Source: a virus
Taxonomy: Duplodnaviria > Caudoviricetes
DNA length: 63,974 nt
IMG/VR virus record: IMGVR_UViG_3300029319_000033
Coordinates: 1 to 63,974 of that record
Strand: one strand, 5' to 3'
The notes under the pieces are model-generated. The model was not told the origin of the DNA. It searched no databases and saw only the letters and a program-made list of their open reading frames with translations. The position numbers and the translations under genes were made by a program. Shown one piece after another: positions 1-63,974 of the stretch. The number at the start of each line of letters is the position of its first letter. Positions within the stretch are counted from its first letter, which is position 1.

Positions 1-101
1 AACTTAGCTTCTCTATTTTTTCTCCTAGTCTCAGAGGCTTTTCTATAACCTTCTTTTCTTCTAGCATCTTTAGCAGTAGTTTTAATCAATTCGTGTTCGT
101 G
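1..101. repeat. Terminal direct repeat (assembly overlap of a circular or permuted genome), left copy
   Basis: 1-101 matches 63874-63974 at 100/101 positions; the only difference is G99 vs A63972. Confidence 0.97.
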
Positions 102-3100
102 ATTTTCAAGACCCAAATCCCAAGTGCTCCAACCTAAAGTTAATAAAACTCTTTCCCAAGTTTCATAATTTTCTTTTGTTGCAGCTGTTATATTCCTAAT
201 TGTTAGTAATGCTCTATCTGCAGGAATATTAGTAAATGCAGATACACCTTTAGTACCAATTTCATATATAGGGCTATCAAATTTAAACCCTTTTGCTTCT
301 ATAACATCTTTTTCAATTTCACTTGTTTTATAACCACTATAAAGTTTACCAAAAAAAGTTCCTATGGGTGGAGAAATTGAAAGTAAATCATTTTCAATTC
401 TAGCAATGTCTTTAGCAAAAATACTATCACTTTGTTTTTGTTTATAAAGTTCTAGAATAGCATTTTTTAAACCAGCTACAACTGCTCCTGTATAACCAAG
501 ACCACCTCTTAAAAATGAATCTACTATACCATTTGTTGCAAAATCAATTTGTCTTTTTAAAAGCTTTTTTGTTTTCTCTTGTTTTTTTTCATCATCCTCA
601 TCATCACCACCGAGTCCAAGAGTAGCAAATAAAGCAGTTTGCATACCAGTAAAAAGTATGTTTTGTACTACAGCGTAGTAAGCTAATTTAGATAAATTAG
701 TCTTCCTATCGCCTCTATTATTTACAAGATCTAAATATGCTTTTTTAGTTAATCTAGCATACTGCATCGGTGTGTTTGCAAAAGCAAGTAATATTCTACC
801 AAAGTGACTTCTCTGTTGTTGTGATATTTCAGCCGGATCTGAAGACTGCTGAGTTTCTTCAGTTATTTGATCAAAATCTTCAAATGCAGCTTTCTCTGCT
901 TCCTGAACAGTCATCCCCTTCTTTATGTTTGAATTAACTCTATTCCTGTACATAGAAGCTCCTCCAAGAGCTATAGCAAAACTATCAGCTATTTGAGTAA
1001 AGAAAAATCCTTTATTCAATAAAGTTTTTATAACACTTCTAGTTTGATTTACTCCATCTTTCCCTTGAACTGCAGCTGAAATTTCTGCTTCAGCTATATT
1101 TATTTTCGTACCTGCTCTTCTTTGTCTTAACTTATCAGAATTAAACAAAAATGTAAAATCTTTCCAAAATTGTTTTTGATTTGCAAAAGCACGAGCAGCT
1201 TGTACTGGGTTGTTATCACTCCAGTTTAAATAATTAACAGATGAAATAGTTTGTAATATTGCAGATCTTACGTTAAAAAACATAACAGTTGCTGTTGAAT
1301 TATTAAGCCAATCGTACCATTTTTGTTCAACAGATCCCTTTTTTAATGGTCTTCTAAGTACACCACTTTTCATACTGTTTAATGAACCTTCTAAAGCCTC
1401 TCTAAATTTTGGACCATACGTAGCTTCTATTTTATTTAAATTTTCTTCTGAAAAAATTTCATTAGAATTTTCTATAAATTCATTTAAGTATTCTGATCTA
1501 GCATTATCAATGCTATAACTTAAATCACTTACAATAGTGCTACCTTCCCAAAATTCTTGAGGTTCTGGATATTTACCATCAAAACTTTTCATTGTACCTA
1601 AATCATCAGCAAAAGCTAATAATTGTTTGTCACTTTTAACAAACTCCACTAAAGTATCAACTTCTTTTTGAGTTAAATCAAGATCAGAATTTTTAACTCC
1701 TTGCTTGTTCCAAAGATATACTCTTACAGCTGCATCTTTATTAAAATTAGTATTAGGTACATGTTCTCCTGTTAATTTAGATTCAAGTTTAAGTTGATCA
1801 ATATATTTAAAATGTTTCTTTTTTATACCTTTATACTCATCTGTTATTCTTTGCCTTTGAGAATCCATTGCTGAAATACCTCTTTTATAAGGACTCATCA
1901 GGTTATATTCAAAAAAATCTTTATGACGTTCACCCACTTTACCTTTACCTAAAAAAGAATACATGAGACCCATAAAATTATCTGCTGATGGTGGAACAAA
2001 AAACTTATACCTACCCTTTCTTGCACCTTCTCTTGTTGCAGATCTTCTTGAGTATCTTTTAGTGGCTTCAACACCTTGAGATTCTTCTAGTATTTTATTA
2101 AATTCTTCATTAATATTTTTAGAATAATTAACATTTTTTTTGTTGTAATATTTAATATTATCATCTATTGATTTTCCATCCGTAATACTAAGTTTTTTAC
2201 CGCTTGGTTTGCTTTTTGATACAGGTATGGGTTTCCCTGCCTTGGGATCAATTCTTAGCTCCCCCCTTATCCTAAATGTACTTTCTCCAGTTTTAATGTC
2301 ATTTGAATCTTTTATTGCATCAAACTTTGCAGTAACAACAACTTTAACATCTAAATTTTTTTGGTTAATTAATAAAGGAGCATGAAAAATATTTCCTTTA
2401 TCATCATCACCTAAGTAAAAAAGACCAGAATTTGCAACTTCAAGATAGGAATTACCTTTTTCACGATAGTATTTTGCTATTTTACCTAAATTAATATCAT
2501 TACTATTAAATGTTCCACCGATTTTAAAATCTTTTATAACACGATCCATCCAAGCTTCTTTTGTTTTGTCAGAAATACGCTGTTTAAATGCTTTACCATC
2601 TGGACCTTTCTCCTTAATTGTAGATCTTTTAACTGGGTTTCTTCCTAGTGCTATTTCCTGCTTATCTAAAAAATCAAAAAATTTATTTAATTGTGCTGGT
2701 AAAACATTTCTTAAAACTGCTTCAAGAAATTCAAAATTTAATTTTTTATTTGTGAATGTAATTTTCCCCTTACCTTTATTATTTACAAAATCTTCATCCA
2801 CTGATAAAACACTACTACCAAAATCTGCACCAAAATCTTTTTTAACTTCTACACCTACTATAATTGGATCACCTACCTTAATTTCTTCCTTACCTTCAGG
2901 TAATTTTTTATTTAATTCATCTATAGTTTTTCTATCTTTTTCCTGATAAACATGACCCTTATAATGTATTTGAATGTCAGGTCTAGAATCATCATTCATT
3001 GCTGTACCCTTAAGCAATGTTATTTTACCATCTTTAGCGTTGTCTATTCTTATTAAATTAAAAACAGTTATTTCTTGAATAACACCACCAACTCTTTCAT

Positions 3101-6100
3101 TTCTAATTTGATTATATTGTTGTAGTATTTTTAGAATTTTAATAGTTACAGCGTCAGATACCTTCCCTTTTTCTCTTAATTTTTGATATTCTCCTTCTTT
3201 TCCTTCTAAAAGTTCTTGAATTTTTTTTCTAGGATCTTTTTCTTTTTTAACTTTTTTAGTAACTCTTTTTGTAACTTCTAATACTTTATTTAATATATTT
3301 ATTCCATCCCTTTCTTTTAATGTCTGGAATTCTTCATCATTTAAATCAAATTGAATGCCCGGAGCTGTTTCTTTTATTGGGAGAGCAAAATTAACATTAT
3401 TAACATCTCTTTCTATTTCTACGCCCATCTGAGCAATAATACCCTCAGAGACAACTTCATCACTAGCATATTTAGATAAATCAGAATCAGTTAAAACTTT
3501 TGTATAAGCATCAAAAGCTAAAGCAGTACCTATAGAATTAGCTAAAGAATTTTTTCTTTTACCAGAAGCATCTTCAAAAAACTCCAAAAATTGTTTTTCT
3601 GTAGGTGTTTTCTTTTTATATAAATTAGGTGATTGAGTTTCTGTTTTTGCTTTAATAGCACCAATATCTTTTGCTGCTCTAGCTTCTAATGGTGTTAATT
3701 GTTTCTTTATTAGCTCAGTAAATATTGGAGTTTTACTTTTTCTATCAAGAGCAACAAGATCTCTAATAGGTAATTTTTCTACTATATTTACTCTATTTGA
3801 TTTTAAAAAATTAACAAAATTTTCTTTAGCTTTTTTACCTCCAGAAATACCACCACTCATTAGTTTTTTAATATCGACAGAAAATTGAGTTTCAAAGTTT
3901 TTTTGAAGTTTTTTCCAAACACTAGGATTTATTTGACCAGTTGTTTTATTATAATAATTCATAAAATTATCTTCAAAATCTTTAACAACCGAATCAAGTA
4001 TCTTTTTGTAAAGACCAGTTTTTTTGTCGATACCTATACTCTCTCTAAATAATGGCTTTTGTTGTTTAGGTTTTTCCTCTGCAACAACTTCCTCTTCTGC
4101 TACATCAACTCTTTCAGTTAACTCATCTTCAAACTTATCTCTTGTAGCAGCCTCACCTTTTTTATAAACATTTTTTATTTTATTGTCTAGCTGACTATTT
4201 ATCCAACCAGATAAACTATTATTTTTTTCTGGATTAAAATTTCTTATGTGAGGTATTAATTCTTCTGTTGTTGCAGATACAAAATCTTCTTCAGAAAACC
4301 CCGGTTGTCTAAATTTAACTGGAGGTATTTTACTTTTTATTAAACCCTGTAAGTCTTGGTTTGTAAAAATATCACCCAATACTGCATCCCCTTTACCAGC
4401 ATCCCACTCTTGTTTTGTAAGTTTATAGTTTCCATCAATATTTTTTTCACCAACTAAACCATCTATTTTTTCTTGTTTAGATACAACTTCTCTAGAAAAA
4501 TTAATTTGATTTTGAACCTTATTTAGTTGTGATTGAGAGAATGGTTTCTTTTGTTTAAGGAAACTAGATAAGTCTTCTGTAAACTCACCTTTTTCTATAC
4601 TTTTATTATACTCTTTCATGAAGTTATACACTCCCTGACCACTATCAAAAGATATTTTTTTAAAACCTATTGATCTAAGTATTGGTGTAAGTACGTCTCC
4701 TAACTTTGTAAAAATATTTTCTTCAAACTCTATTAAAGATGTACCATCTTCATTTTTAATATTTAAAGCATCAGAAAAATTTGTTAGGTACTCTGTGTAA
4801 TATTGACTAGATCTATTACCTTTAGAATCCACAGAAATATCATAATTTCTTTTTTTCATTAATGTATCAACGATATTCCTTTGTCTTTGAGAAAGCTTTG
4901 ATTGGAATTTTTCTACTAAAATTTTTTGTTTAGCAGCATTCCCAGCATATCTAAAAAGAATACCATGCAATACTTCATGAGAACCCACTGTGTTTTGCAA
5001 ATCAGCAGCCACAGATTTATTAACATAAACTACATTATTTGGTGCATCGTAAAAACCACCAGCGTTTTTTATGTCTGATCTTTCTTGTTTTGAAAGTTTT
5101 ATTTTTTGTTCTTTTGGTAAGGTTTTATTTAATTTATCTAAATCAGCTAATAACTCATCTGCAGTATCAAAAGCCCTAACTTGAGAACCAGACTGTTTAA
5201 TAAATTCAATATCTCTTCTTACTCTTCTTTCTCTAGAAGCCTTTTTAATTGCTGCTCTTTTAGATTTATTATCTTTTACAGCCTTTATTCTTCTGTCAAT
5301 ATCTTTATACTTATCTGTTATTTCTTTTATTTCAGATTTAACTTCTGCTAATTTATTTTTTGAAGATACTGTTTTTTTATTTTCAAGTTTTTTAACTTCT
5401 TTTTCTAATTCAAAAAATCTATCCCTATCTGTCTTATCAATTATCCTATCATCTATCTCTGATTTTATTTCAATATCAGATTGAAGTTCAGATACTCTAG
5501 AGTATAAATCATTATCATTTTTAATTTCAAAGTCTATACTCGCTTTTTCAACATCAGTAATTTTATCAGATTCTAATATTTTTATAATTTCACCTCTAGA
5601 AGCTAATCCACCATTTACTTTATATCTACCTGCTTTAGTGTTTAAAGCACTAAAACCACCCACTACTGCAGTTTTTGGAGCACCTCCTAAACCTGCAATA
5701 CCTTCTATTATTATTTCTTTTGTATCAAGTCCTCTACCTTCTATCGCCTGTGCTCCTGCTTCACCCAAAGATCCCCCCACTCCTTCAACACCAAAAGCGG
5801 CAGCTCCTTTTGCAGCTTTTACACCTATTCTTCCAGTGGCACTAGTTACACCTCTAGTTGCTCTAGCAATAGAGGATATGGCTTTACCACCAACTAAGGT
5901 TGCTGCACCTTCGATAACACCTATAGTTGATCCTGCTGCTATTGACTTCATTTGCACACTTTCAAAAAGATCTTCATCATTTAAAAATTCTTCTATAGTT
6001 TCTGGAGTGACTTCCTTACCGGCATCTCTAATTGCAGCCTGCATATTTTGAGAAAACCTGTTTACAGATTCTGAATAAGCATTAGCTGCAGCAAATCCTC

Positions 6101-6770
6101 CTGAAAGTGCTCCTCCTGCAACAGTCACTGGAGCAAAAATACCTCCTGCGAATCCAGCAGCAGCACCAACACCGGCTCCTCCTGTTGCCGCTGCAAGAGT
6201 TTCAATATTAGATAAACTAGCCACACTTTGAGCCATAACTCCAAGAAATCCATCAGTACCTGTCTCCATTGTAGCTTTGTATGTTGCTTGAATTGCATTA
6301 TCACCTTTTTCTATGTATTTATCATAGGCTTGATTCCACTCTTCCATAGCCTCTATTGGGGCAGCATTATTTATTTTTTGAATAGCTTCAAATGCATTTT
6401 GTATATCTTCTTTAGTAGACTCACCTCCAGACCTCATTATTTGACTAAACTCATCTGTAGTTTCAGCCATTGTTAATCCAACCTTACCTCCTTGTGTGAT
6501 AGCATTAAAAGAGTCAGTAAATTCTGTAAATAAATTAAAACCTTCTTCTTTAGACTTTGATGGTTCAGGTTTTTTTACTTGTTTTTGTGTTTCAGCTATT
6601 TGTAAATCAATAGCTTTCTTCCAAGAAAAAGAATCATCTACAATATTTTTTTCTTGATCTTCGATTTCTTTTTCTTCAATCTCTTGTTCCTGACTGTCTT
6701 GTTCGTAAATTTTTCTTGCTTCAGCTATGGCATTTAACCATGAAGAAGTTTCATCATTTCCATTTGACAT
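1..6770 (-). CDS. Giant putative virion ejection polyprotein, 2287 aa; continues across the join to the stop at 63780. Zincin HExxH, sigma2-like and PD-(D/E)XK modules
   Basis: ATG at 6770 (MSNGNDETSSW...). Hand translation stays open to the window edge and is in frame with the 63780-63962 ORF through the terminal repeat. Motifs: GFYD..HEVLH, NFNPEK..SLSGWI, RPDI..GVEVK. Lies after two other ejection-like genes. Confidence 0.85.
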   Translation of the reverse strand, partial: MSNGNDETSSWLNAIAEARKIYEQDSQEQEIEEKEIEDQEKNIVDDSFSWKKAIDLQIAETQKQVKKPEPSKSKEEGFNLFTEFTDSFNAITQGGKVGLTMAETTDEFSQIMRSGGESTKEDIQNAFEAIQKINNAAPIEAMEEWNQAYDKYIEKGDNAIQATYKATMETGTDGFLGVMAQSVASLSNIETLAAATGGAGVGAAAGFAGGIFAPVTVAGGALSGGFAAANAYSESVNRFSQNMQAAIRDAGKEVTPETIEEFLNDEDLFESVQMKSIAAGSTIGVIEGAATLVGGKAISSIARATRGVTSATGRIGVKAAKGAAAFGVEGVGGSLGEAGAQAIEGRGLDTKEIIIEGIAGLGGAPKTAVVGGFSALNTKAGRYKVNGGLASRGEIIKILESDKITDVEKASIDFEIKNDNDLYSRVSELQSDIEIKSEIDDRIIDKTDRDRFFELEKEVKKLENKKTVSSKNKLAEVKSEIKEITDKYKDIDRRIKAVKDNKSKRAAIKKASRERRVRRDIEFIKQSGSQVRAFDTADELLADLDKLNKTLPKEQKIKLSKQERSDIKNAGGFYDAPNNVVYVNKSVAADLQNTVGSHEVLHGILFRYAGNAAKQKILVEKFQSKLSQRQRNIVDTLMKKRNYDISVDSKGNRSSQYYTEYLTNFSDALNIKNEDGTSLIEFEENIFTKLGDVLTPILRSIGFKKISFDSGQGVYNFMKEYNKSIEKGEFTEDLSSFLKQKKPFSQSQLNKVQNQINFSREVVSKQEKIDGLVGEKNIDGNYKLTKQEWDAGKGDAVLGDIFTNQDLQGLIKSKIPPVKFRQPGFSEEDFVSATTEELIPHIRNFNPEKNNSLSGWINSQLDNKIKNVYKKGEAATRDKFEDELTERVDVAEEEVVAEEKPKQQKPLFRESIGIDKKTGLYKKILDSVVKDFEDNFMNYYNKTTGQINPSVWKKLQKNFETQFSVDIKKLMSGGISGGKKAKENFVNFLKSNRVNIVEKLPIRDLVALDRKSKTPIFTELIKKQLTPLEARAAKDIGAIKAKTETQSPNLYKKKTPTEKQFLEFFEDASGKRKNSLANSIGTALAFDAYTKVLTDSDLSKYASDEVVSEGIIAQMGVEIERDVNNVNFALPIKETAPGIQFDLNDEEFQTLKERDGINILNKVLEVTKRVTKKVKKEKDPRKKIQELLEGKEGEYQKLREKGKVSDAVTIKILKILQQYNQIRNERVGGVIQEITVFNLIRIDNAKDGKITLLKGTAMNDDSRPDIQIHYKGHVYQEKDRKTIDELNKKLPEGKEEIKVGDPIIVGVEVKKDFGADFGSSVLSVDEDFVNNKGKGKITFTNKKLNFEFLEAVLRNVLPAQLNKFFDFLDKQEIALGRNPVKRSTIKEKGPDGKAFKQRISDKTKEAWMDRVIKDFKIGGTFNSNDINLGKIAKYYREKGNSYLEVANSGLFYLGDDDKGNIFHAPLLINQKNLDVKVVVTAKFDAIKDSNDIKTGESTFRIRGELRIDPKAGKPIPVSKSKPSGKKLSITDGKSIDDNIKYYNKKNVNYSKNINEEFNKILEESQGVEATKRYSRRSATREGARKGRYKFFVPPSADNFMGLMYSFLGKGKVGERHKDFFEYNLMSPYKRGISAMDSQRQRITDEYKGIKKKHFKYIDQLKLESKLTGEHVPNTNFNKDAAVRVYLWNKQGVKNSDLDLTQKEVDTLVEFVKSDKQLLAFADDLGTMKSFDGKYPEPQEFWEGSTIVSDLSYSIDNARSEYLNEFIENSNEIFSEENLNKIEATYGPKFREALEGSLNSMKSGVLRRPLKKGSVEQKWYDWLNNSTATVMFFNVRSAILQTISSVNYLNWSDNNPVQAARAFANQKQFWKDFTFLFNSDKLRQRRAGTKINIAEAEISAAVQGKDGVNQTRSVIKTLLNKGFFFTQIADSFAIALGGASMYRNRVNSNIKKGMTVQEAEKAAFEDFDQITEETQQSSDPAEISQQQRSHFGRILLAFANTPMQYARLTKKAYLDLVNNRGDRKTNLSKLAYYAVVQNILFTGMQTALFATLGLGGDDEDDEKKQEKTKKLLKRQIDFATNGIVDSFLRGGLGYTGAVVAGLKNAILELYKQKQSDSIFAKDIARIENDLLSISPPIGTFFGKLYSGYKTSEIEKDVIEAKGFKFDSPIYEIGTKGVSAFTNIPADRALLTIRNITAATKENYETWERVLLTLGWSTWDLGLENHEHELIKTTAKDARRKEGYRKASETRRKNREAK

Positions 6771-6775
6771 AATTG

Positions 6776-8041
6776 TTAATCTATTGGATTAAGATCTACA
6801 TATTTCATTAAAAGAGGTAACTCTTCAAATTTATAATATCTGATAGCTCTCATACCTTCTTTTGCTGCTTGATTTGAAAGTAAAAATGCATCTTGTTTTG
6901 GAACATACTCAACATAATACCCATCATAATATATTTCTTCGTTTAATCTATCACTCAAAGTTTGTTGACCTGTTATGTTTTGCTCTTGTATTTTAGTTTT
7001 TTCTTCATCATCAATATTAGTAAAATCCCGAATAGGATAAAATCTAACTAAATCCTTTTCATTACTTTTCATCCAATTTTGATGTTTACTTGATATTGTA
7101 TTAGGATTTTTTTGATTAAACCCTAAATTAGACTGCTGTATAATGGCTTGTCTATATTTAGCTAATAGTTCATTTTCTAATTCCTCTTTAGCTTGTAAAG
7201 AAATAATTTCATCACTACTATTAATTCTGTTAAATATTTCTTCAGTTCCTTCATATAACGATATGCCTGCAACCAAATCATCTACAGCTAAAGATTTAAG
7301 AACATCTATACCACCTTTTTCTATAGTTTTTTTAATTTGACTCATGGTTAAGTTTACAGTAGCATCACTAAGTTTTTGACCTGAATCAAAAGCTTTCACC
7401 ATTAAACTTTCAACGAACATAGCTTCATCTGCAGCTTTTAGTGAAGGAAGTTTTAAATCTGTCATCTTAAAAAAACCACCTCTACCATCATCAAAAAATA
7501 AATCACCTTGATCGTTTATGATGACATTTAATTTATCTGTAAATAAAGCTCCATTTAAAGCTATATTACCAAGATCATTAGCTTTAGAAAAATTTTTGTT
7601 GGTAAAATTAGTTAAATTATCTTCCTTACTTTGACCAAATAAATTCCATTGAGCTTTTAAATTACTCATTGCTTGTAAGGATTGATTCATTATATTTGTT
7701 TGTTCTTGATATTCATCAGTCCCTGCTTGCATATTTACTCTAGCAGTTACAGCGTCACTATATATTCTTTTTTGTTTAAAAGAAAAGTCTTCTATTGCTG
7801 ATCTGTATATTTCTGGTATATTAGAAATAGCTATACCGGGAGGGAATTGATCTATATATCTAGTTATTTCTCTGTTTATTCTTTCTTCAGTTGCTTTTCT
7901 TTCTAATCTTAGTTTTTCTGCTTCTAATCTTCTTCTTTCAGCAACCTCATTAAAAGGATCAGCTAATTCTTTTCCAAAACTAGGATTTTGATACATCCAA
8001 GCATCTTTTGATGCCCTTATTAAACCTACATCTGCTGCCAT
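6776..8041 (-). CDS. Putative internal virion (ejection) protein, 421 aa
   Basis: Long helical ORF between the pilot-like and giant proteins, as in the usual podovirus three-gene ejection cluster; function inferred from position. Confidence 0.55.
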   Translation of the reverse strand: MAADVGLIRASKDAWMYQNPSFGKELADPFNEVAERRRLEAEKLRLERKATEERINREITRYIDQFPPGIAISNIPEIYRSAIEDFSFKQKRIYSDAVTARVNMQAGTDEYQEQTNIMNQSLQAMSNLKAQWNLFGQSKEDNLTNFTNKNFSKANDLGNIALNGALFTDKLNVIINDQGDLFFDDGRGGFFKMTDLKLPSLKAADEAMFVESLMVKAFDSGQKLSDATVNLTMSQIKKTIEKGGIDVLKSLAVDDLVAGISLYEGTEEIFNRINSSDEIISLQAKEELENELLAKYRQAIIQQSNLGFNQKNPNTISSKHQNWMKSNEKDLVRFYPIRDFTNIDDEEKTKIQEQNITGQQTLSDRLNEEIYYDGYYVEYVPKQDAFLLSNQAAKEGMRAIRYYKFEELPLLMKYVDLNPID

Positions 8042-9405: not shown

Positions 9406-12400
9406 TTATAATATATTACTTAATTGAACTTTTATTGTAACTCTAAGTATATCTGTTGAAACCACATCACCATTACATGTTACAGAAAAATCAAAACTAG
9501 CTCTTGTATTTGCAAAACTAGGTAAAAGATCAAAACCAGTTAATTGATTATTAACTTGATCAAATAATTTAACATTACTAATTGTTTGAGCATCAAATCT
9601 TTCACTTGAAGTAATTGATAATGTTACACCATTAACTGTATTACCATCTCCTCTAAAGAAAACGACTCCAGATCCAGATATTATATCATCATCTTCAGCC
9701 CCATTACCAGAACCAATTGTAACAGCCTTCTTAACTCTAACAAAACCACCAGAATTTGAACTTGTAGAATCATACAATCCACTAAGTGTTAAAGAAGTGT
9801 TTGCAGGAACTGAAGGTGCATCAGCCGATGCTATAGAACGTAAAAATAAACTTAATCCTATTTCAGATGTTAAACTTTTAGTACCAAATCTTAAAACATT
9901 TAAAATACCTGTTATGGTATAAGTTTGTGGTGCAAATTTTGTAAATGTTAAAGCGACATCATCAGCAATAGTTTGTGAAGATGACATTACTAAATTTTGT
10001 TGATCAGTTACTGTTATAACACTAACTAATCCTACAATACCTTCACCTGTAATAACATCACCAACTGCAATAGTTCCAGAATTATTATCAACAACTAGGG
10101 CTGTAGATCCAGTAATAGCACCATTTTTATCTGCTGTTCTTGTAGCTGAAACTTCTTTACTTAAAACACCTTTTAAATTAGAATATTCAATTATCCAACT
10201 ATTAGGTGCTGAAAATGTTAAAATATCACCAACTGAAACATTATTTGCTGCTAAAAATATACCTGTTTGATCTCCGTTATTATTTAAACTTATATCAAAA
10301 CTACCTCCAGCATTTTTTATTGCTATTGTAGTCCCTGACGGTAAAGTCCCTCCAGAAACTATACTTGAAGTTCCTCCAGATGCTGCTGTTTGTATAGAAA
10401 AAACTCTAACGCTTTCATTAAATGTTAAAGCACTTGTACTTCCATTACCTGCAACAGAAACCTCTCTTTCAACTGTTGAATAACCAAAATCTTCATCCAA
10501 TATATCTCTAGAAGTAGTTAAATATTGACCACTAGCAGCTGTAATTGTAAATGAAAAATTAACTAAGGCAGACTTTGTTAATTCTTTTGGTTCACTAAAA
10601 GATGTGCCAGTTATAGTAAGATCACTTGTAGAAGTTGGATTTGTACCTGTTATACTAACATTAGGAGATATTGTCCAAGTAACTTCAGCAGTTTGATTAA
10701 TAGATACAGGATTTGTACCATTAAAATCTGTGGCTAAAGCAGTATCTTCTTGAGCCTCAACTTCATAATTAAATGTTCTAAATACAGATGTTGAAGCATA
10801 TTCTACTGGTATAGAATACACACCTGTAGATGGTATAGTTTGTATTAATGGAGAAGTTAATGTTCCAAAAGCACTAAAATTACTACCATCCCAAAATTCT
10901 GAAAAAGTTAGTTCTGTATCATCTGCTATCGTAGTAGAAGATGAAGCTGTGATTGTATTTGTTGAAACACTACTTACTCTTAAACCAGATTGAACATTAC
11001 CGCCTTCAATTCTCATACCTGATAAAACAGCAGCATTTGTGTTGTCTAAAGTTATACTAGCAGAACCACTAACAGCACCATTGACAGTATCCGTAGTAAA
11101 TCTTTTTAGTCTAAACTTAGCTCCTGATCTACCAAATATTCTTATAAATCTAGTTTCTCCTCTAGCACTTACAGGTTTTGTTGACATCTCCATGCCTGTA
11201 ATTTCATCGGCAGCGTCTAAAAATGTTTTTTCTGCTTTAGCTGTTAATAATATCTTGTCTTCTGTAGGGTTGTTTGTACTAAATACATAGTAAACTTTTA
11301 ATGTAACTGATGCAGGGAAAAAAGATAAAGTTGTATTAATAGGTATTGTAGCTGCAGTGGATAAAGTTAAAGTTGTACTACTTATTCCTGATACTGTAGT
11401 AAAAGATGATATTCCTGTTCCACTGACAACCATTCCTGTTGATATTAAAGAGTTAGAAGCACTAAGTGATACTGTTACAGAATTATCTACATCTGCCGCA
11501 ACAGAAGAAGTGGTAGAAACAAAATCATTGCTACTAGTGTATTCACTAAACGTACTTTCATCTTCCTCCAAAACATCTAATGTTGGTGCGGATCTAAACT
11601 CAAAACCAGTATCTGCTGTAAATGTTCTAGATATTATTTCTGTACCAAATCTTAATATAGTGTCATCAGGTATTGTAGCATTTAAATCAGCACCTGTACC
11701 ATCTTTAATATTCAAAGCAGTGCCATTTATTGATTTTACAAGTGCATTATCAGGAACGCCTGACCCTATAATAGCCATATTTTGAAATATTTTATTAGAT
11801 GAAATGATTATTGTAGAATTATCACTTAAACTTTGTGCACTTGATAAAGTTCCTATAAATTGATCACCATCATTAGTTGTAGCAAGTTGACTAGTTTTAT
11901 CAGTTATTTTTGGAGTAAAAGTTAAGTCTGTGTTATCAGATAATGTTACACTTTCAGACAGTGTAAGTTGAGTAACTGAAGCTACATTTGTAACTGTTAT
12001 AAACTTAGATATTCCATCGCCAGTAACAACTGAACCAACAAATATTTCTGACGATCTATTGTCATAATTTACAGTTGTAGAATTATTAACATTTCCATTG
12101 ACTTTAGCTGTAACTATAGCAACATCATTTCCAGTGATTGAATCATCTATAGAAATAATTTGATTATTAGATATATTATCTATATTTAAAGTTGTGCTTG
12201 AACTAGTAGCACCTCGGACTAATGCTGTCTTTTCAGGATGTAAAACTGGTGAGTTATCTGTACTTAATCCATTAACTTTTGCATTTAAATAATAATGCCC
12301 AACACCACTATAACCAACATTTGAAACGGAAGAAGTAGTTGTATTTTTTTCATCTGTACTAAATGTACCTGTTACTGCATACTTTGCTGGCTTTGCTGTT

Positions 12401-15400
12401 GCTGAAATATTAATGTCTTTAGTTAAATCAGATACCATATTAATAGTAGAATCTATGTCTATAGTTACTGTAACAGTATTATTCAAACTTCCCTGTCCAC
12501 CTACTGCATCTGTATTTTGTATTGTTCTACTACCAGCAGCAGTACCAGCAGCTACATCAATTGCAGATATTACAAATCCAGTATTTGGAGTTATAGTAAA
12601 AACAGCATCACTAAGATTAGCACCAACTTGTGCATTATCTGCCAATTCAGTATAAGTAACAGTAGTAGGATTTACCGTAGCATTATCTATTATATTATTA
12701 GATCCAGTATCTACAGTAAGAGTACGAGTTACTCCTCCACTTTGACTTATTGAAGATGGGAATCCTAATCCTTGTACAGAAAATTCTTTTGTATCTAAAT
12801 TAGATGATGTAGTATCATCCCCTAATATTTGATTAAACTTAAAGTTTTCTTTTTCTTTAAAAAATCTAACACTACCAGTTTGTTGATCTGTAGTTATAGA
12901 ATCAGCAAACCATCCTTTTGTTTCTGTTTCTGGTAATGCAGCTATACTAGCAGGAGAAAGACCTGCTTTTTTAAGAACTTCTAAAGTTGTTCCTGCTCCA
13001 TAAACAGGTGTAAATGTTAAAGTAACATCATTACTTATGCTTTGAGCTGAAGATAATACTAAATTATTTTGATCAGTAACAGTGGTAACGGTTACGGTTC
13101 CTGATATCCCAGAGCCAGTTACTACATCCCCCACAACAATGGTTCCAGAATTACCATCAACAACTAAAGCTGTTGAACTACTTATTGTACCATTTACTAC
13201 AGCTGTACTAGTTGTGCCTCCGTATGTGTATTTTCTAGAATCACTACCCTCGTAATTTAATGTTTTAAAACTTTTTACACTTTGAGGAAAATCATTAAAT
13301 ATAAACTTTACAGAAGATGCACTTGCTGTTCCGTAAAAAGTGTTTCTTACTGTATTATCATGAGAATATAAATCTCCATCTTTATAAGTATAATAAATAT
13401 TATTTAATGAAAATCCATTTTCAGGTATAAAAGATTTAAAGCTAGTCCATCCATCAACTCTTTCATCAAAACTTAATGTTTGATTATTTAAAGTTATATT
13501 ATATGATCCTTTATCATCATCATAACTACCAAGTATTGTTGTAGATAAAGGTAAGTTATCTCCAAAAAAATCAGTCATACCTTTTTCAGATATCTCAGTT
13601 AATCCATCTCTAGATAATCTTAAAACTGCACCTCTAGCTTTATCTGCAAAATATATTCTAAAAGCATGCGAAGCAAAAGATTCTGGATTTTTAGATATAC
13701 CATACTCACCAACATAAGGTATTGCTTGACCTAAAACTCTATTTGTTGCTGTTAAATTAGCATTTCCATCAGCATTAAACAAAGCATCTTTATTTGCTAA
13801 TACTTTTAATATTTTATCCTCACAAAAAGTAATTAAATCTGCATCTCTAGCATATATTCTTTGTATAGTCCCGTATTCAGGATTTATATCTTTTGTTATA
13901 GGTAATGCTAATAAAAATTGATTAAGTTCATTAACACCTGATGTAGAGTTGAATATTCCTGAAAATATAAATGTATTAGTTTTATGTTCTTCTTTGTAAT
14001 CTTCATTTAAAGTTGTGGATACTATAGGACCTTTATCAATAAAAGGTGTATTAAAATCATCTCTTATCCTATTAGATTCTACTCCATTACCAAAAGAAAA
14101 AACATTATACCAATCTAAAGAATTTATTTGACCATGAACTTGATTTTCTGCTAATACAACAGATTTAGCTGTGGCAACATCTCCACTAGTGGTTACCGTA
14201 AAACTGTATATATTATCTTGATCAGTAAAAGTTAATACAGTTCCACTAGACATAGTGCCATTTGTATTATTTAATAATTCTATATTACTACCATCTACAA
14301 CTGAACTAACAATATTAGAATTACCAGATCCCACATTTGTACCAGTAACAGTCATACCTGCTTTTATAATAGGTAAAGCATTACTTGCTTCATGGTAAAT
14401 ATCTAATCCTTCTTTTGTTTTTGGTTCTGTTTCAAATATTGCAGGATTGTTAGAACTTATTTTTTCATCATCTACTTGTATGTTTTTCTTTACTAAAGAT
14501 ATTTTACTTATTCTCCCAAGAAGAGTTGAGCTTGCAGTAGACGGATTAAACGAATCATCGTATAGCTCCCCTGTTTCTTGGTTTCTTATAAATACTTTAT
14601 ATAATCTTCTTTTACCACTTATCCATGTTCTTTTTGTAGTATCATTAGTTCTAAATTCAGACTTTACACTACTACCTGTAACTTCATATACCGAACCTTT
14701 GTCTCCAAAATCATTACTAAATTGTATTAAAGCTCCCGGCTTGGTTATTTCTGTTATCAGTGGATTTACATTTATACTTATATCATCTTCTTCAACACCA
14801 TACTGACCTATATCTATACCTCCAAAATAAAATTCAAAAAACTCAGAACCTTTTTTTGGATGTGTATTTGTTGAATTTAAAGGATTAGTTGCACTACCAA
14901 AATCCTCATCACCCCAAGCAAAATCTCTTTTTGGTTTTTCAGAGTCTTCATCTTTATTTGAAAAATCATTTAATAAGTTTAAATTAATAGTTTCACTTTT
15001 TACTATATCAAATCTAGACTTTACTGAAGGAAATGCCTCTATTATGTTTTTATCTAAAACTGTGTCTCTAGATACTTTAACAAAAAATCTACCAAAAAAC
15101 TCATCTTTTGGTTCTATAGTTTTTCTGAATATGTTTACACTAATATCTGATCCTTCAGAAACTAAAGTTGATGCGAACACGTCTTCATCACTTTCATGTA
15201 TTGGTTCTTTTAGAGTTACATCGTAAACAGTTCCACTGCTAGATAGTCCACCACTTTGTATTTTGTATTTTCTAGATCTTTTAGCAGGAGCAGGTATGAA
15301 ATTTAAATCAGTATTATCACTTATTGTTTGTACAGAAGATAATACTAAATTATTTTGATCAATTATTGTTTTAACAGTAGCATCTCCTGATATTCCAGTT

Positions 15401-18042
15401 CCAACAACTCTATCTCCTACTCTAATAATACCAACATTATTATCTATGGCTAAAGATGTAGAATCAGAAGTAGCACCATTTACTTTTGCTGTAGGGGAAT
15501 CATTTGTTGGTATATCTGTAGATATTTGTATTTCACTTTCAGTTCTAAATGCAGAAGAAAATGAAGGATTTGAAGATGCTTCAGGTCCATTAAATTGAAA
15601 AAATGTAGATCCAACTGATGGCTGATTTACTGATAATGTTGAACAGTTAGCTTTACCTGAAGAAATTAATTTTTGAGATATAAAAGCTGGTGCTTCATTA
15701 GATATATCTAAAACTCTGTATCTAGCTTTTTCCGATACAAAATTATCATTATCGTGTTGTTTCTTAAGTATTAAATAAGTTTCTTCATCTACTTTATTTC
15801 TCTCAGCTGAAGGAAATGATAACCAAATATTACCATCTTCTGCAAAATAAAACTTATCAAGAGCTAAGTTATAATATTCACTTGAAGTTTCTTTTACAAA
15901 AAACTTATAATGCGTTGCCCAGTCAGGAGCATTATTTTGTAACTGTACGTTTATCCTATTTTTTGTTACACCAAAAGATTTAGGTAATTTAATAGATGAT
16001 TTTTTTGAAGAAAAAACCGGGGTCTCTCTTCCATATCTATCAGAATAAGTTGTACCTATTTGATAAGTTCTTAAAGATTTAACTGATTTTTCAGGTATTT
16101 TCTTTTTAGTAAATGTTAAAACAGTATTTTCCTCCACATACACCTCCCAACTATTAGGTGTATATGTAGTTGTAACTCTAGATATATCACTAAATTTTTT
16201 TGTTTCTGCAGATATTGTTAATATGGTACCAGATATATTTTTAACAAAAGTGTGAGCAGGTATTCCTTCACCTGTTATTAACATACCTACTTCAATTAAA
16301 GAATTAGATGAAGATAAAATAATTTTATTACTTTCACCTTTATTAGATGTAGATACAGTAGCCGTAGTTTTTAAATTAGAAGCACTCTGTTCTACAGTTA
16401 CATCAATATCAGGAGTATTTTGTTTTAATAAATTATATCCTTGATAATAATTTGCAAATATAAGTCTATTAGCTATTATTTCTTGAGCTTTTGCTTTTTT
16501 AGGTACATTATCAAAAGGTCTTAATATTTGATTTGATTCTACTAATGCACCAAAACTTTCAGACAAAACAGAATATGATGTTTCTCTATTTTTTAAAACA
16601 TCTACTACATATACAGCATTACTAACTGAATCTTTAACTAATATTTCAACTAATTCAACATCTTCTGGCTGAGTATCAAAACCACTTAAAGATAATGTTC
16701 TTAATGAATTTTGCATACCTATATTGTGACTTTCATCACTTTCATACAAAAATTCACTAGGTAAAAAAGCTACTTCAGAAAAAGGTGAAAATGTAGAATA
16801 TTGACCTTCTTTATATTTATATCTGTAAGCAAACCTTACAAAAGTATCTTCAAATAAAGGATCTTTTTCTTTTAGTGTAGCAGTCCAAGTAACAGCACCT
16901 AAATCTGGTAGGTTTGTGTTTATCGTTTGAATAATACATGTTGCTGAATATGTATTTGAATCAGGGAATCCTTCAGTAATAATTTCAGAATTTATTAAAC
17001 CTAGTATTTTTACAGTTATTGTATGTTTAGTTTCAGTTACATTATCTATTTCAATATGTTCTAATATTATAATGTCATCTTTTATAAAATTAGCTTGAGG
17101 ACTAAATGTTATATCAAAGCTAGATCCTGAAGTTAAAACAGAACCTCCACTGTAAAAGTCTTTTTTTATAAAAACAGGAGTTCCACCTTCTACACCAAAA
17201 CTACTTTGAGTTCTTTCAGTAGAGGACATTGTTAATGTTGGTGCATTTAATGGAGATTGCTTAATTACAGTAATATCTTTTTCTGTAAAATCTGCATTAT
17301 TAATTTGAGTGTGGTAGTTAAAAGTGCTAGAACCAGCTTTAAATTTAGATATTTTTATTAATTTAGGTTCAGTTTGATTATCTGTCCAAGAAAGCAATCC
17401 ACTAATAACATTTGCCCCTGTTATCAAATATTCATCACTATATTTTAATATGTCATTTTTATCAACTAGAACTGGTGATATTTCCCCTGTAGTGCTATCA
17501 AACTCTGCAATACAACTAATTTTAGATTTAAATGTTAATAATGCACCATCTTCAAGAGTAAGTGTTTTAGATAAAATAATACTATTTGAAGTTAAAACCG
17601 TTGTTACTGTCACTTCGTCAAATATTCCTTTACCACTAACAGTCATACCCTCAACTATAGTCCCAGAGTTTTTCTCTATTAAAAAACTAGTATCTGTTCT
17701 TTCACTAGTAACTTGTGCTCTAACGGTGCTGCCTGAAGATATAAACCAATATACTTTATCATTTTGAGGGTCTACAACATATCCTATGCATTTAGGATTT
17801 GTTAAGTCTTTTATTGAAGATGAGTTACTGCCCCAATTAGTTAGTATGCCTGTGCTATTGTCAAAGTTTCTACCATCTTTTAATGTATTACCTAAAACAT
17901 TTTGAATAGACCCAACATTAGATCCTTCAGAAGTAATTATTTCAATATTCTGAGCATCTCTATATTCACCATTAGGTACTAGTCTTTCATCCAGATCTTT
18001 ATTCATTCGACCTGCACGAAAGTGATGTTTTATGTCTGCCAT
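9406..18042 (-). CDS. Tail nozzle / stabilization protein (P22 gp10-like, crAss muzzle-like) carrying about 12 inserted beta-rich domains, 2878 aa
   Basis: N-terminal MNKDLDERLVPNGEYRDAQN; core FGNGVESNRIRDDFN..GEYGISKNPESFA..DKARGAVLRLSRDGLTEIS..WTSFKSF. Confidence 0.8.
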   Translation of the reverse strand: MADIKHHFRAGRMNKDLDERLVPNGEYRDAQNIEIITSEGSNVGSIQNVLGNTLKDGRNFDNSTGILTNWGSNSSSIKDLTNPKCIGYVVDPQNDKVYWFISSGSTVRAQVTSERTDTSFLIEKNSGTIVEGMTVSGKGIFDEVTVTTVLTSNSIILSKTLTLEDGALLTFKSKISCIAEFDSTTGEISPVLVDKNDILKYSDEYLITGANVISGLLSWTDNQTEPKLIKISKFKAGSSTFNYHTQINNADFTEKDITVIKQSPLNAPTLTMSSTERTQSSFGVEGGTPVFIKKDFYSGGSVLTSGSSFDITFSPQANFIKDDIIILEHIEIDNVTETKHTITVKILGLINSEIITEGFPDSNTYSATCIIQTINTNLPDLGAVTWTATLKEKDPLFEDTFVRFAYRYKYKEGQYSTFSPFSEVAFLPSEFLYESDESHNIGMQNSLRTLSLSGFDTQPEDVELVEILVKDSVSNAVYVVDVLKNRETSYSVLSESFGALVESNQILRPFDNVPKKAKAQEIIANRLIFANYYQGYNLLKQNTPDIDVTVEQSASNLKTTATVSTSNKGESNKIILSSSNSLIEVGMLITGEGIPAHTFVKNISGTILTISAETKKFSDISRVTTTYTPNSWEVYVEENTVLTFTKKKIPEKSVKSLRTYQIGTTYSDRYGRETPVFSSKKSSIKLPKSFGVTKNRINVQLQNNAPDWATHYKFFVKETSSEYYNLALDKFYFAEDGNIWLSFPSAERNKVDEETYLILKKQHDNDNFVSEKARYRVLDISNEAPAFISQKLISSGKANCSTLSVNQPSVGSTFFQFNGPEASSNPSFSSAFRTESEIQISTDIPTNDSPTAKVNGATSDSTSLAIDNNVGIIRVGDRVVGTGISGDATVKTIIDQNNLVLSSVQTISDNTDLNFIPAPAKRSRKYKIQSGGLSSSGTVYDVTLKEPIHESDEDVFASTLVSEGSDISVNIFRKTIEPKDEFFGRFFVKVSRDTVLDKNIIEAFPSVKSRFDIVKSETINLNLLNDFSNKDEDSEKPKRDFAWGDEDFGSATNPLNSTNTHPKKGSEFFEFYFGGIDIGQYGVEEDDISINVNPLITEITKPGALIQFSNDFGDKGSVYEVTGSSVKSEFRTNDTTKRTWISGKRRLYKVFIRNQETGELYDDSFNPSTASSTLLGRISKISLVKKNIQVDDEKISSNNPAIFETEPKTKEGLDIYHEASNALPIIKAGMTVTGTNVGSGNSNIVSSVVDGSNIELLNNTNGTMSSGTVLTFTDQDNIYSFTVTTSGDVATAKSVVLAENQVHGQINSLDWYNVFSFGNGVESNRIRDDFNTPFIDKGPIVSTTLNEDYKEEHKTNTFIFSGIFNSTSGVNELNQFLLALPITKDINPEYGTIQRIYARDADLITFCEDKILKVLANKDALFNADGNANLTATNRVLGQAIPYVGEYGISKNPESFASHAFRIYFADKARGAVLRLSRDGLTEISEKGMTDFFGDNLPLSTTILGSYDDDKGSYNITLNNQTLSFDERVDGWTSFKSFIPENGFSLNNIYYTYKDGDLYSHDNTVRNTFYGTASASSVKFIFNDFPQSVKSFKTLNYEGSDSRKYTYGGTTSTAVVNGTISSSTALVVDGNSGTIVVGDVVTGSGISGTVTVTTVTDQNNLVLSSAQSISNDVTLTFTPVYGAGTTLEVLKKAGLSPASIAALPETETKGWFADSITTDQQTGSVRFFKEKENFKFNQILGDDTTSSNLDTKEFSVQGLGFPSSISQSGGVTRTLTVDTGSNNIIDNATVNPTTVTYTELADNAQVGANLSDAVFTITPNTGFVISAIDVAAGTAAGSRTIQNTDAVGGQGSLNNTVTVTIDIDSTINMVSDLTKDINISATAKPAKYAVTGTFSTDEKNTTTSSVSNVGYSGVGHYYLNAKVNGLSTDNSPVLHPEKTALVRGATSSSTTLNIDNISNNQIISIDDSITGNDVAIVTAKVNGNVNNSTTVNYDNRSSEIFVGSVVTGDGISKFITVTNVASVTQLTLSESVTLSDNTDLTFTPKITDKTSQLATTNDGDQFIGTLSSAQSLSDNSTIIISSNKIFQNMAIIGSGVPDNALVKSINGTALNIKDGTGADLNATIPDDTILRFGTEIISRTFTADTGFEFRSAPTLDVLEEDESTFSEYTSSNDFVSTTSSVAADVDNSVTVSLSASNSLISTGMVVSGTGISSFTTVSGISSTTLTLSTAATIPINTTLSFFPASVTLKVYYVFSTNNPTEDKILLTAKAEKTFLDAADEITGMEMSTKPVSARGETRFIRIFGRSGAKFRLKRFTTDTVNGAVSGSASITLDNTNAAVLSGMRIEGGNVQSGLRVSSVSTNTITASSSTTIADDTELTFSEFWDGSNFSAFGTLTSPLIQTIPSTGVYSIPVEYASTSVFRTFNYEVEAQEDTALATDFNGTNPVSINQTAEVTWTISPNVSITGTNPTSTSDLTITGTSFSEPKELTKSALVNFSFTITAASGQYLTTSRDILDEDFGYSTVEREVSVAGNGSTSALTFNESVRVFSIQTAASGGTSSIVSGGTLPSGTTIAIKNAGGSFDISLNNNGDQTGIFLAANNVSVGDILTFSAPNSWIIEYSNLKGVLSKEVSATRTADKNGAITGSTALVVDNNSGTIAVGDVITGEGIVGLVSVITVTDQQNLVMSSSQTIADDVALTFTKFAPQTYTITGILNVLRFGTKSLTSEIGLSLFLRSIASADAPSVPANTSLTLSGLYDSTSSNSGGFVRVKKAVTIGSGNGAEDDDIISGSGVVFFRGDGNTVNGVTLSITSSERFDAQTISNVKLFDQVNNQLTGFDLLPSFANTRASFDFSVTCNGDVVSTDILRVTIKVQLSNIL

Positions 18043-33782: not shown

Positions 33783-34061
33783 TTATTTAGACTTTCTTTC
33801 TGCAAAACCACTAAATGATATACTTTGATTTGTATCAAGTGATATTTTATTTTCTAATATATTTTCTTCTTCTTCTATTCTATTGAGTATTTCAAACGCA
33901 TCAAAGATAGCAAGTTTTTTTGTTGCAGCAGCATTTTTTAATCTATCTGCCGATATATCATCATCAGAATCTACAATAGCTTCTTTTGCTACTTTAATTA
34001 ATTCCTCAACTGCTACTTGCCCAGCTTGGATTATATTCTTCTTCGTTTCCTTGATATTCAT
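33783..34061 (-). CDS. Terminase small subunit (probable), 92 aa
   Basis: Helical (ADRLKNAAATKKLAIFDAFEIL..GFAER); just upstream of terL. Confidence 0.55.
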   Translation of the reverse strand: MNIKETKKNIIQAGQVAVEELIKVAKEAIVDSDDDISADRLKNAAATKKLAIFDAFEILNRIEEEENILENKISLDTNQSISFSGFAERKSK

Positions 34062-34611
34062 ATTTAATTGTAATTTGACTAGTTAAAACTCTATATAGTC
34101 TTTCACCGTCAATAATAAATTCATAAGTGCTAACAGGTGTAAATCCAACTAAGTCACCTTCTTCTAACCCAAACTCATTAAGAGTTTTATTACTTTTTTT
34201 TAGAACACCTATACATTCTCTTTCTTTATCTAAAGAATATTTATCTATAGATTTTATTGGCTTTACAAAACAAAAACCATCTGTAGCTACCCACTTATTG
34301 TCTCTTTTGTATGAAAATATTTGATCTTCTTTTACACAATAAGTGTTTTCATTTATATAACTCCTACTATTTTTTTCTTTAGAATCAACATTATACCATC
34401 TTCTAAACACATTATGATGTACTATAATATTATCACCTACTTTTATTTTAGTATTAATTGCTATGGGTGTTGATTTAACTACAGCCTCCCTGCTAACATA
34501 CTGATGATTATATATTTCTGTATTAAGAATAAGATCTTTATCATCAACTTTTTTAGTATTATTATAACGAGATGACTTAGGTGATATTATAAAGTCATAT
34601 ATACTCCTCAT
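34006..34611 (-). CDS. Tandem GroES-like protein (two cpn10-like halves), 201 aa
   Basis: Half 1 FIISP..AVV..IKVGDNIIVHH..VKEDQI; half 2 CFVKP..GVL..LEEGDLVGF..YEFIIDGERLYRV..QI. Confidence 0.55.
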   Translation of the reverse strand: MRSIYDFIISPKSSRYNNTKKVDDKDLILNTEIYNHQYVSREAVVKSTPIAINTKIKVGDNIIVHHNVFRRWYNVDSKEKNSRSYINENTYCVKEDQIFSYKRDNKWVATDGFCFVKPIKSIDKYSLDKERECIGVLKKSNKTLNEFGLEEGDLVGFTPVSTYEFIIDGERLYRVLTSQITIKYEYQGNEEEYNPSWASSS

Positions 34612-35291: not shown

Positions 35292-36812
35292 TTAAGTATG
35301 TGTACCATCACCGTCTGTAATTGTCCAACCTCTACTAACTAATGTTGCTCTAGCATTTTGACCTGCAGTATCTGTTAAACGAGCAATGTCAAAGTGTGCT
35401 GTTACATTACTTTGTGTTGATTGTGCCGCCCAACCTATAATTGTAGCTTTATAATTAGCGTCAGATAAAGAACCAGCACCATTAAACATATCTGTCATAT
35501 TTGTTACATTACTTATATCCCAACTAGCAAGGTTTTGATTAAAAACCATACCTAACTCTCCACCCTTAAACATATTACTCATGTTTGTAACACTACTTGT
35601 ATCCCAACCACTAATATCTTGATTAAAACTTTCAGCACCTTCAAACATACGATGCATATTAGTAACACTGCTTACATTCCAACTACTAATATTCTGATTA
35701 AAAGATTGTGCATTTTCAAACATTTCAGACATATCGGTAACACTACTGACATTCCAACTAGTAATGTTTCCATTAAAAGCAGTGGCTCCTTCAAACATTG
35801 CACTCATATTTGTAACGCTACTTACGTCCCAAGAATTTAGATCTTGATTAAAAGATGTAGCATTATTAAACATCGCTGTCATGTTTGTAACATTACCTGT
35901 ATTCCAAGAATTACAAGTTTGATTAAAAGAAGTAGCTCCTCTAAACATATTTACCATACTAGTAACATCTGCAGTATCCCAAGAATTAATACTTTGATTA
36001 AAAGATGTAGCATTCATGAATATTTGTAGGAAATTAGTGGCACTTCCTGTATTCCAACCACCTATATTTTGATTAAAAGCAGAAGCACTAGAAAACATAC
36101 TATTAAAATCTTGCACATTGCTAACATCCCAACTAGTAACATTACTATCATTAAAATTTGTTAGACCTTGAAAACAACTACTTAAATCTGTACACCTTGA
36201 AAGATCTGGTGTGTCGCTAGCACTTATATTTAAACTTGTACTTGCACCTTGTAATGTTAACTTTCTCCATTTTATATTACCCCAAGCAGATATATCAGTT
36301 ACATTAAAAGTAGTTAAACTCCATTCTGGAAATGATAGAACTGTATCTGCTATTATGGTAGCATTATAAGAGCTTGTTGATCCCCCTCCACTATTATCTA
36401 AATAAGTTTTGTTAAGTTGACCAGCATCAAGTGTAAAGGTAAGTATATTAATAAAAGTTGTAATACCATCACCCCAAGCAATAGCAGCACCGTATTCACT
36501 AGAAGTACCATTTAAAGTTATTCTTCCATTATAATTTTGACCTGCAGGGAACGTTGTAGTGAATGCAAAAGCTGTTGAGGCTACTGATGCTGGATATCCT
36601 CTGTATTGATTGGCGTTAGTTACATTACTTAAACTACCACTTAAATCTCCAGAGAAAGTTGTATCAAATAAAGAAACATTAGATGCAGCTATTAAATCGT
36701 TTAAATTATCAACACTAGCTACAGATCCACCACCTTCAGTTATAGCACCTTGTATTGTAGTGTTATCGCTATTACCAAACATACTAAAACTACCGCTAGT
36801 AGGTACACCCAT
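35292..36812 (-). CDS. BspA/DUF285-repeat surface protein, probably a virion adhesin, 506 aa
   Basis: About nine 25-aa FNQxIxSWDVSxVTNMxxMF repeats (~35480-36200); follows an S74 fibre gene. Confidence 0.85.
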
Positions 36813-40299: not shown

Positions 40300-40557
40300 T
40301 TATTCAACAAGAACTACATCTTGTGATTTAATAATTTTATAAAGGGTGTCTTCATAGCTGATACCATGTCCTGCATGCTTGTCATAGTATACTATGTCTT
40401 TATCTTTGACACCCTCGACCTTACTGCCGCAGCTGATAACCCTTGCTCTAATGTAACGATTATCTAGGTCTGTCTTTTCTGTGAAAATAAGTCCAGCAAT
40501 CTTTTTCTGTTCTTCTTTGATATCACTTACTATCAAATAAAAATTAATTGCCTTCAT
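40300..40557 (-). CDS. groES: Co-chaperonin GroES (cpn10), 85 aa
   Basis: GLIF..ARVISCGSKVEGVKDKDIVYYDKHAG..IIKSQDVV; overlaps the groEL stop. Confidence 0.85.
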   Translation of the reverse strand: MKAINFYLIVSDIKEEQKKIAGLIFTEKTDLDNRYIRARVISCGSKVEGVKDKDIVYYDKHAGHGISYEDTLYKIIKSQDVVLVE

Positions 40558-63779: not shown

Positions 63780-63974
63780 TTATCTTCTTCTTCTTCTTTT
63801 ATCTTGATCAGAAGATCCTCTTCTTCTATCACCTTTATCCTTATCTTCATCTAATCCTCTTCTCCTATCTTGCAACTTAGCTTCTCTATTTTTTCTCCTA
63901 GTCTCAGAGGCTTTTCTATAACCTTCTTTTCTTCTAGCATCTTTAGCAGTAGTTTTAATCAATTCGTGTTCATG
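63780..63974 (-). CDS. C-terminal end of the giant ejection polyprotein (continuation of 1-6770)
   Basis: In frame through the terminal repeat: ..HEHELIKTTAKDARRKEG..DKRRRRR stop. Confidence 0.88.
   Translation of the reverse strand, partial: HEHELIKTTAKDARRKEGYRKASETRRKNREAKLQDRRRGLDEDKDKGDRRRGSSDQDKRRRRR
63874..63974. repeat. Terminal direct repeat, right copy
   Basis: 100/101 identical to 1-101. Confidence 0.97.

Follow-up and report, generated by a model that had tools for sequence, protein, structure and literature searches.

Does a giant protein encoded by a marine phage contain a nuclease domain and, if so, whose DNA would that domain cut? The question is raised by an open reading frame (ORF) of IMG/VR virus record IMGVR_UViG_3300029319_000033 (Duplodnaviria; Caudoviricetes). 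The whole virus record (63,974 bases, rated 100% complete) was analyzed and is referred to here as the window. The giant ORF lies at 3..6770 on the minus strand and encodes amino acids 1-2256 of a 2,287-amino acid protein. A first-pass annotation, made from the letters of the sequence, had proposed that the range 2136-3383, or about residues 1130-1545, holds a restriction-endonuclease-like domain carried inside a virion protein and recognizable by the E..PD..ExK order of the PD-(D/E)XK catalytic signature. Our analyses suggest that a module spanning residues 1223-1519 (2214..3104, minus strand) is probably a new nuclease-like domain family, and the conserved motifs and profile similarities described below make it likely that the module has a restriction-endonuclease-like fold. 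The whole of the explanation that we favor, namely a divergent PD-(D/E)XK domain in an ejected virion protein acting on non-phage DNA, stands in our judgment at even chances.

All of the peptides quoted in the first-pass annotation were found in the minus-strand frame of ORF 3..6770. The PD dipeptide lies at 2976-2981, within SRPDIQI (residues 1262-1268; 2967-2987), and EVK lies at 2841-2849, within VGVEVKK (residues 1305-1311; 2838-2858), both precisely where they had been placed. GGVIQE corresponds to residues 1228-1233 (3072-3089) and ADFGS to residues 1315-1319, and a longer peptide, IAKYYREKGNSYLEVANSGLFYLG, corresponds to residues 1431-1454. The module, delimited by a 15-sequence alignment (A2) and by the secondary structure predicted by AlphaFold, consists of a glutamate-bearing helix, a PD strand, an EVK strand and a second conserved half with long β-hairpins at its end. 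E1233 (3072..3074, minus strand) is invariant, sits on the helix before the sheet and is the candidate first acidic active-site residue. P1264-D1265 (2976..2981, minus strand), likewise invariant, stands at the start of a predicted strand and aligns to the PD of TnsA-like proteins, and E1308-V1309-K1310 (2841..2849, minus strand) contributes an invariant ExK to the next predicted strand, aligning to the EVK of TnsA-like proteins and of YraN. Between PD and EVK, the window protein has an insertion of ~25 residues that is predicted to be helical (2874..2951, minus strand; A2 columns 170-192). This insertion was also found in homolog L002 and was absent from L003, L005-L012, L014 and L016. In homologs without it, which make up most of the other loci, D and E are 20-23 residues apart, the usual spacing for a PD-(D/E)XK-type active site.

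The conserved region extends to both sides of these motifs. A helical lead at residues 1140-1222 (3105..3353, minus strand) is co-conserved with the module in a further alignment (A1) and corresponds to the helices at 6-79 of the first AlphaFold model. Downstream, the second conserved block, IAKYYREKGNSYLEVANSGLFYLG (2409..2480, minus strand), falls in the half that matched phrog_26930, a family of 698 positions with unknown function. This match was seen in 9 of the 15 aligned members (best E = 2.9e-4) and covered window positions 2214-2700 on the minus strand (residues ~1400-1460), i.e., the second half of the module, indicating that part of the module recurs in another, unnamed phage protein family.

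In a single sequence, the motif is weak evidence, because 63.5% of 2,000 shuffled versions of the giant protein, which is rich in lysine and glutamate, contained one or more instances of a loose E..PD..ExK pattern with the usual spacings. A form that includes the strand context (PD-h-x-h ... h-[DE]-h-K) was present in 2.2% of the shuffles, and the real protein has one such occurrence. What raises the motif above chance is its conservation in relatives down to 27% identity. Alignment A2 comprises the window sequence and 14 of 17 homologous loci, the near-duplicates L001, L004 and L017 having been left out, and the aligned homologs are 27-64% identical to the window. Across all 15 sequences, 15 columns were invariant, among them E1233, D1260, P1264, D1265, I1266, Q1267, E1308, V1309 and K1310.

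Homologs of the module were found solely in giant proteins of marine metagenomes and viromes. The 1,240-3,948 amino acid length class (4,832 candidates) contained three such proteins, one match was obtained in the 707-2,015 amino acid class, and a library of 1.84 billion representatives yielded three matches. Viral contigs supplied one locus out of 58 stretches with the pattern and metagenome contigs another 16 out of 343. Stand-alone homologs of 199-706 amino acids were absent from the 8,000 best-ranked candidates scored, and none of 32 pattern stretches from 185,579 species genomes was confirmed. In 50,697 phage records, tblastn gave no match to the module, to the giant protein as a whole or to either its N- or its C-terminal part, nor did megablast give any match. 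A plus-strand ORF (2566..2946) overlaps the module; the frame conserved as protein in the 17 loci is that of the minus strand.

The sole recurring matches to families of known type were Tn7_TnsA-like_N of Pfam (PF08722), NOV_C and YraN of NCBIfam, all three of which we take to be members of the restriction-endonuclease-like clan. Tn7_TnsA-like_N was matched by 2 of the 15 members (E = 0.045 and 0.056) exactly over the PD..EVK stretch, NOV_C by one member below threshold, and YraN by three members, also below threshold (best E = 0.06). Small family alignments built from genomes were then compared with the core profile of the module (A3) using hhalign. Against seven TnsA-like sequences A3 scored 23.1 (P = 0.003), with PD placed over PD and EVK over EVK, and this score was reached by 0 of 150 column shuffles (mean 9.8, maximum 16.8). 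The comparison with 30 YraN sequences scored 18.1, a value reached by 2 of 100 shuffles. Fourteen unrelated comparisons, made as controls with a thioredoxin profile and two other parts of the giant protein (against four clan families and each other) and with A3 against thioredoxin, scored 9.0-15.9, and six pairs of true clan families in the same set-up scored 12.4-29.9. By these profile scores, the likeness of the module family to two clan families is about as great as that seen between clan families themselves. Tox-REase-7 was the top named cluster in the ESM Atlas, and 9 of the best 10 share its family or clan; among the named rows shown are R-HINP1I, Mrr_cat, Mrr_cat_2, MspI, AccI, MunI and PDDEXK_14.

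A considerable body of results weighs against the nuclease assignment, in addition to the shuffle frequency of the loose pattern. No cut-off was exceeded when the whole protein, the module and the 15 members were searched against Pfam, PHROGs and NCBIfam; for the copy of the module in the window itself, Pfam and NCBIfam gave no match at all, and the best scores for Tn7_TnsA-like_N (14.7 and 14.4 bits) fell short of its gathering threshold of 26.5. In hhalign, A3 scored at noise level against Mrr_cat (12.7; 29 of 30 loci, with L070, whose match ends at a contig edge, left out) and against 30 Hjc sequences (13.7, reached by 6 of 100 shuffles). The hhalign probabilities were 10% or less, the TnsA-like alignment spans 34 columns, and the TnsA-like family was picked for this comparison after its weak matches were known. 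The ESM scores (0.81-0.82) are rated by the tool itself as a lead only. AlphaFold was run with 6 and with 15 sequences, giving mean predicted local distance difference test (pLDDT) values of 65 and 55, respectively; neither model reached 50 on the PD and EVK strands. Foldseek gave 0 matches in the PDB at E ≤ 0.001, and no nuclease was present among the fold matches from Foldseek or VIA-align; the one match in the BFVD fold search (E = 6.2e-4) was an uncharacterized 259-amino acid phage protein. A search of the sequences of solved structures (phmmer and profiles A1 and A3) returned chance rows only, namely FKBP5, a designed repeat protein and BMP10.

The signature proposed in the first-pass annotation was therefore borne out in part: the E/D/ExK set is conserved and apparently intact and the predicted order of the strands is as expected, with the first AlphaFold model showing a helix carrying E1233, two strands, a strand starting at PD, an inserted helix and a strand with EVK, but the models are too poor to lend it support. 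Likewise, profile searches of the module brought weak, sub-threshold PD-(D/E)XK similarity, and fold searches brought no nuclease. A reader of these negatives might prefer a new α/β domain of an internal virion protein that is not a nuclease, in which the likeness to PD...ExK is convergent and the conserved acidic and basic residues serve folding or the binding of metal or a partner. We consider this unlikely, given that the four motif residues are invariant in 15/15 sequences at the identities stated above, that the register shared with TnsA-like and YraN sequences outscored 14/14 controls and was matched by few or no shuffles, and that the nearest named ESM clusters are restriction-endonuclease families.

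The distribution of the module within related giant proteins bears on what it might do. Seven more distant homologs of the giant protein (L102-L108) were found, whose C-terminal third is 41-44% identical to that of the window protein in six cases and 25% in one. In none of the seven did hmmsearch with the module profiles give a match at E ≤ 10, and residues ~1100-1527 of the window protein are exactly the stretch that BLAST alignments with these proteins skip. At the place of the module they have a different middle segment of 400-1,000 amino acids, and four of the seven segments (L102, L104, L105 and L107) are related to one another. The replacement segments had no PD..ExK pattern and no Pfam family over cut-off. 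As these seven homologs lack it, the module looks like a clade-specific cassette carried by a conserved scaffold.

The first-pass annotation had also stated that no methyltransferase is visible, and this held for the families searched: none of PF00145, PF01555 and PF02086, the only three examined, was matched at E ≤ 0.1 anywhere in the 63,974-base record, whereas their control matches numbered 10, 14 and 11 of 14 genomes, respectively. Within these three Pfam families, the cognate methyltransferase of a type II restriction-modification system was thus not found. This result is one of several that fit a module with the PD-(D/E)XK fold acting on the phage's own DNA and not on that of the host, whether by holding or processing the genome end at ejection or as a structure-specific nuclease or resolvase in replication, recombination or maturation. 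The nearest families above noise are TnsA-like proteins, which cleave transposon ends, and YraN, which is related to Holliday-junction resolvases, and not the classical restriction enzymes; moreover, were a nonspecific, host-killing nuclease to enter alongside phage DNA that is unmodified, this DNA would itself be at risk. A core step of ejection or replication nevertheless sits poorly with the absence of the module from the seven distant homologs, which an accessory function fits better, and we regard a role on phage DNA as quite improbable.

Whether the module would act outside the producing cell depends on the nature of the giant protein, and here the evidence comes from the gene neighborhood. 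Bases 3-101 are identical to bases 63876-63974, and the record closes on itself, although its database class is 'linear'. Together with the 100% completeness rating, this repeat indicates that the assembly is circular or terminally overlapping and that the giant ORF crosses the junction. Its last 31 codons lie at 63783..63875 (minus strand), followed by a stop codon at 63780-63782, giving a protein of 2,256 + 31 = 2,287 residues; full-length homologs have 2,035-2,204 amino acids. The ORF closes the series of large genes in the structural/late block and begins 5 nucleotides past where the preceding gene (6776..8041, same strand) stops. The gene order, GroES - large terminase - portal - capsid-type/structural genes - giant genes, is that of Cellulophaga phage Calle_1 (Pervagoviridae), and the giant gene lies after the portal, capsid and tail genes in the same order and on the same strand as in Calle_1, where its place is occupied by gp001, annotated as 'structural protein'. 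A neighboring gene for a 2,878-amino acid protein (9406..18042, minus strand) matches 'virion structural protein' genes of Calle_1, phi38:1, phi13:2 and other Cellulophaga phages, as well as 68 Flavobacterium phage records. In this neighbor, only the first ~1,600 residues match the ~1,300-amino acid virion structural protein of Pervagoviridae/Flavobacterium phages, and the remaining ~1,270 residues had no match. The phage is a marine podophage related to Pervagoviridae, a group described in the available text of one report as podovirus-like phages of about 73 kb (PMC8776804). It is not crAss-like, an affiliation ruled out by the Cellulophaga and Flavobacterium relatives and by the lack of a DxDxD motif in either giant protein.

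From gene position and build, it is reasonable to infer that the giant protein is a virion protein, the label that the first-pass annotation carries in its title. Two Gly/Ala-rich hydrophobic segments (residues 197-229 and 276-295; 5886..6182, minus strand) lie within the N-terminal region that matches phrog_32588, the PHROG match of the giant protein. Such segments and great length are typical of ejected internal proteins. Alternatively, the giant protein may remain unpackaged as a late, non-structural factor in assembly, DNA maturation or late takeover, so that the nuclease would act inside the producing cell. Consistent with this, no structural protein with proteomic support proved to be a homolog, the tblastn search of phage records was empty and phrog_32588 has no assigned function. 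Calle_1 gp001 itself was not supported as a homolog (best BLASTP E = 0.027; phrog_32588 for the giant protein vs. phrog_22602), which tells against packaging. On the other side stand the position of the gene, on the same strand and immediately behind the preceding gene of the structural block in the place of a 'structural protein', and the build of the protein, and a non-structural factor confined to the producing cell seems to us rather doubtful.

In the explanation that we favor, whose fold, catalysis, packaging, ejection and target we infer from the observations above, residues ~1223-1519 would constitute a previously unannotated, very divergent PD-(D/E)XK domain. Its metal-binding/catalytic set appears intact: a helix carries E1233, one strand opens with D1265 and the following strand holds E1308-x-K1310. 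The giant protein, judged by gene position, would most likely be an internal virion protein, serving in ejection or as cargo, and the module would enter the cell alongside the genome. There it would act as a Mg2+-dependent endonuclease on DNA other than the phage's own, either that of the host or that of a competitor; attack on host DNA would, in the proposal of the first-pass annotation, feed the phage ribonucleotide reductase.

The composition of the genome was examined for traces of site-specific cleavage. Several palindromes were missing or scarce: GGCC, CATATG and AGTACT were observed 0 times vs. 16.4, 11.1 and 10.9 expected, respectively, and GGTACC and GCGC twice each vs. 14.0 and 12.8 expected. 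The both-strand counts of CCAGG and CCTGG were 1 each vs. 37.6 expected. CCGG and TGATCA were over-represented in the record. Such avoidance is compatible with self-protection from a site-specific nuclease, as had been supposed in the first-pass annotation, and is explained equally well by avoidance of host restriction. The most specific scenario, in which the giant protein is a delivery scaffold with an exchangeable middle cassette and, in one clade of marine phages, a head-packaged, ejected, sequence-specific endonuclease cuts host or rival DNA at the start of infection while the phage's own unmethylated genome is spared by its missing sites (GGCC, CATATG and AGTACT altogether, CCWGG essentially so), strikes us as very unlikely in its entirety. 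Such a protein would be, in effect, a 'restriction enzyme without a methylase' carried by the virion, and the phage counterpart of polymorphic toxin delivery.

Among known proteins, the N-terminal domain of Tn7 TnsA-like proteins (PF08722) offers the closest parallel, as it shares with the module an acidic residue on a helix, two strands and x-P-D-h-x-h followed by h-E-V-K. The likeness has limits, since the match is below cut-off and neither a TnsA C-terminal domain nor a transposon context is found around the module. Unlike TnsA-like domains, the module lies inside a 2,287-amino acid phage protein, and ~130 further conserved residues follow it, matching phrog_26930. Some crAss-like phages have been reported to carry a PDDEXK domain within their large 'transcription block' proteins (Yutin et al., 2021; PMC7886860), and the available part of a review regards these giant proteins as packaged, ejected cargo (PMC10136315). 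As far as the descriptions in these sources allow a comparison, the crAss-like proteins share with ours a restriction-endonuclease-like domain (putative in ours) in a giant protein adjoining structural genes; ours differs in belonging to a Pervagoviridae-related lineage and in that neither giant protein has the DxDxD polymerase motif. Enzyme domains are also carried by podovirus ejection proteins, e.g., T7 gp16 with its transglycosylase, according to the available text of a review in which the word 'nuclease' does not occur (PMC8954989). As with T7 gp16, a large protein at the end of the structural block contains an enzymatic module (here a putative one) in a long scaffold; delivery of the giant protein would be comparable only by conjecture, and the two have no sequence similarity. 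In a full-text literature search, no paper on a nuclease in an ejection protein was present among the matches listed. MuF-fused polymorphic toxins and P1 DarB are virion-carried effectors, in which an exchangeable domain is fused to a head-packaged protein. The module would resemble them in this general description and differs in being internal rather than C-terminal. The top named ESM cluster, Tox-REase-7, is a polymorphic-toxin nuclease family, a link that serves as a lead only.

The general idea of a nuclease domain in a giant phage protein is thus already in print as a bioinformatic annotation, as the available text of PMC7886860 indicates. New here are the phage lineage, the scaffold protein, the lack of any family-level match and the cassette-like distribution. 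If the module is active and ejected, a DNA-cutting enzyme would be in the cell before any phage gene is expressed. This would provide a route to host takeover or competitor exclusion that lies outside canonical accounts of podovirus ejection proteins. The family, which occurs only in giant proteins encoded by uncultured marine phages and escapes recognition by Pfam, PHROGs and NCBIfam, would thus become a new branch of the restriction-endonuclease-like superfamily. Furthermore, the presence of a different middle segment in related scaffolds suggests that giant virion proteins may carry their payloads in modular, interchangeable form, which could be studied in cultured Cellulophaga or Flavobacterium phages.

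Elsewhere in the giant protein, a zincin-like HExxH motif, HEVLH (residues 598-602; 4965..4979, minus strand), is kept in the close homologs and in 4 of the 7 distant ones. For this region, Pfam gave only DUF6782, a putative metallopeptidase, at E = 0.1, and the region may be a second enzymatic module of the protein.

The remainder of the window held several further genes of note. A GroEL-type chaperonin is encoded at 40544-42109 (minus strand; Cpn60_TCP1, E = 1.2e-49) and a GroES-like co-chaperonin at 34006-34611 (minus strand; phrog_13932). A DUF285 repeat protein (35292-36812, minus strand; E = 8.6e-98) lies among the tail-fiber genes, and a DUF4915 protein (51353-52435, plus strand; E = 5.5e-96) is found in the replication half. 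Lastly, contigs L021-L034 encode a ribonucleotide reductase that is 81-88% identical to that of the phage (window 59234-60934). The bins to which they had been assigned are labeled Aliivibrio, Vibrio, Nitrospirae, Woesearchaeota, Desulfobacteraceae and Flavobacteriales, and these contigs are probably phage contigs that were mis-binned into those genomes.

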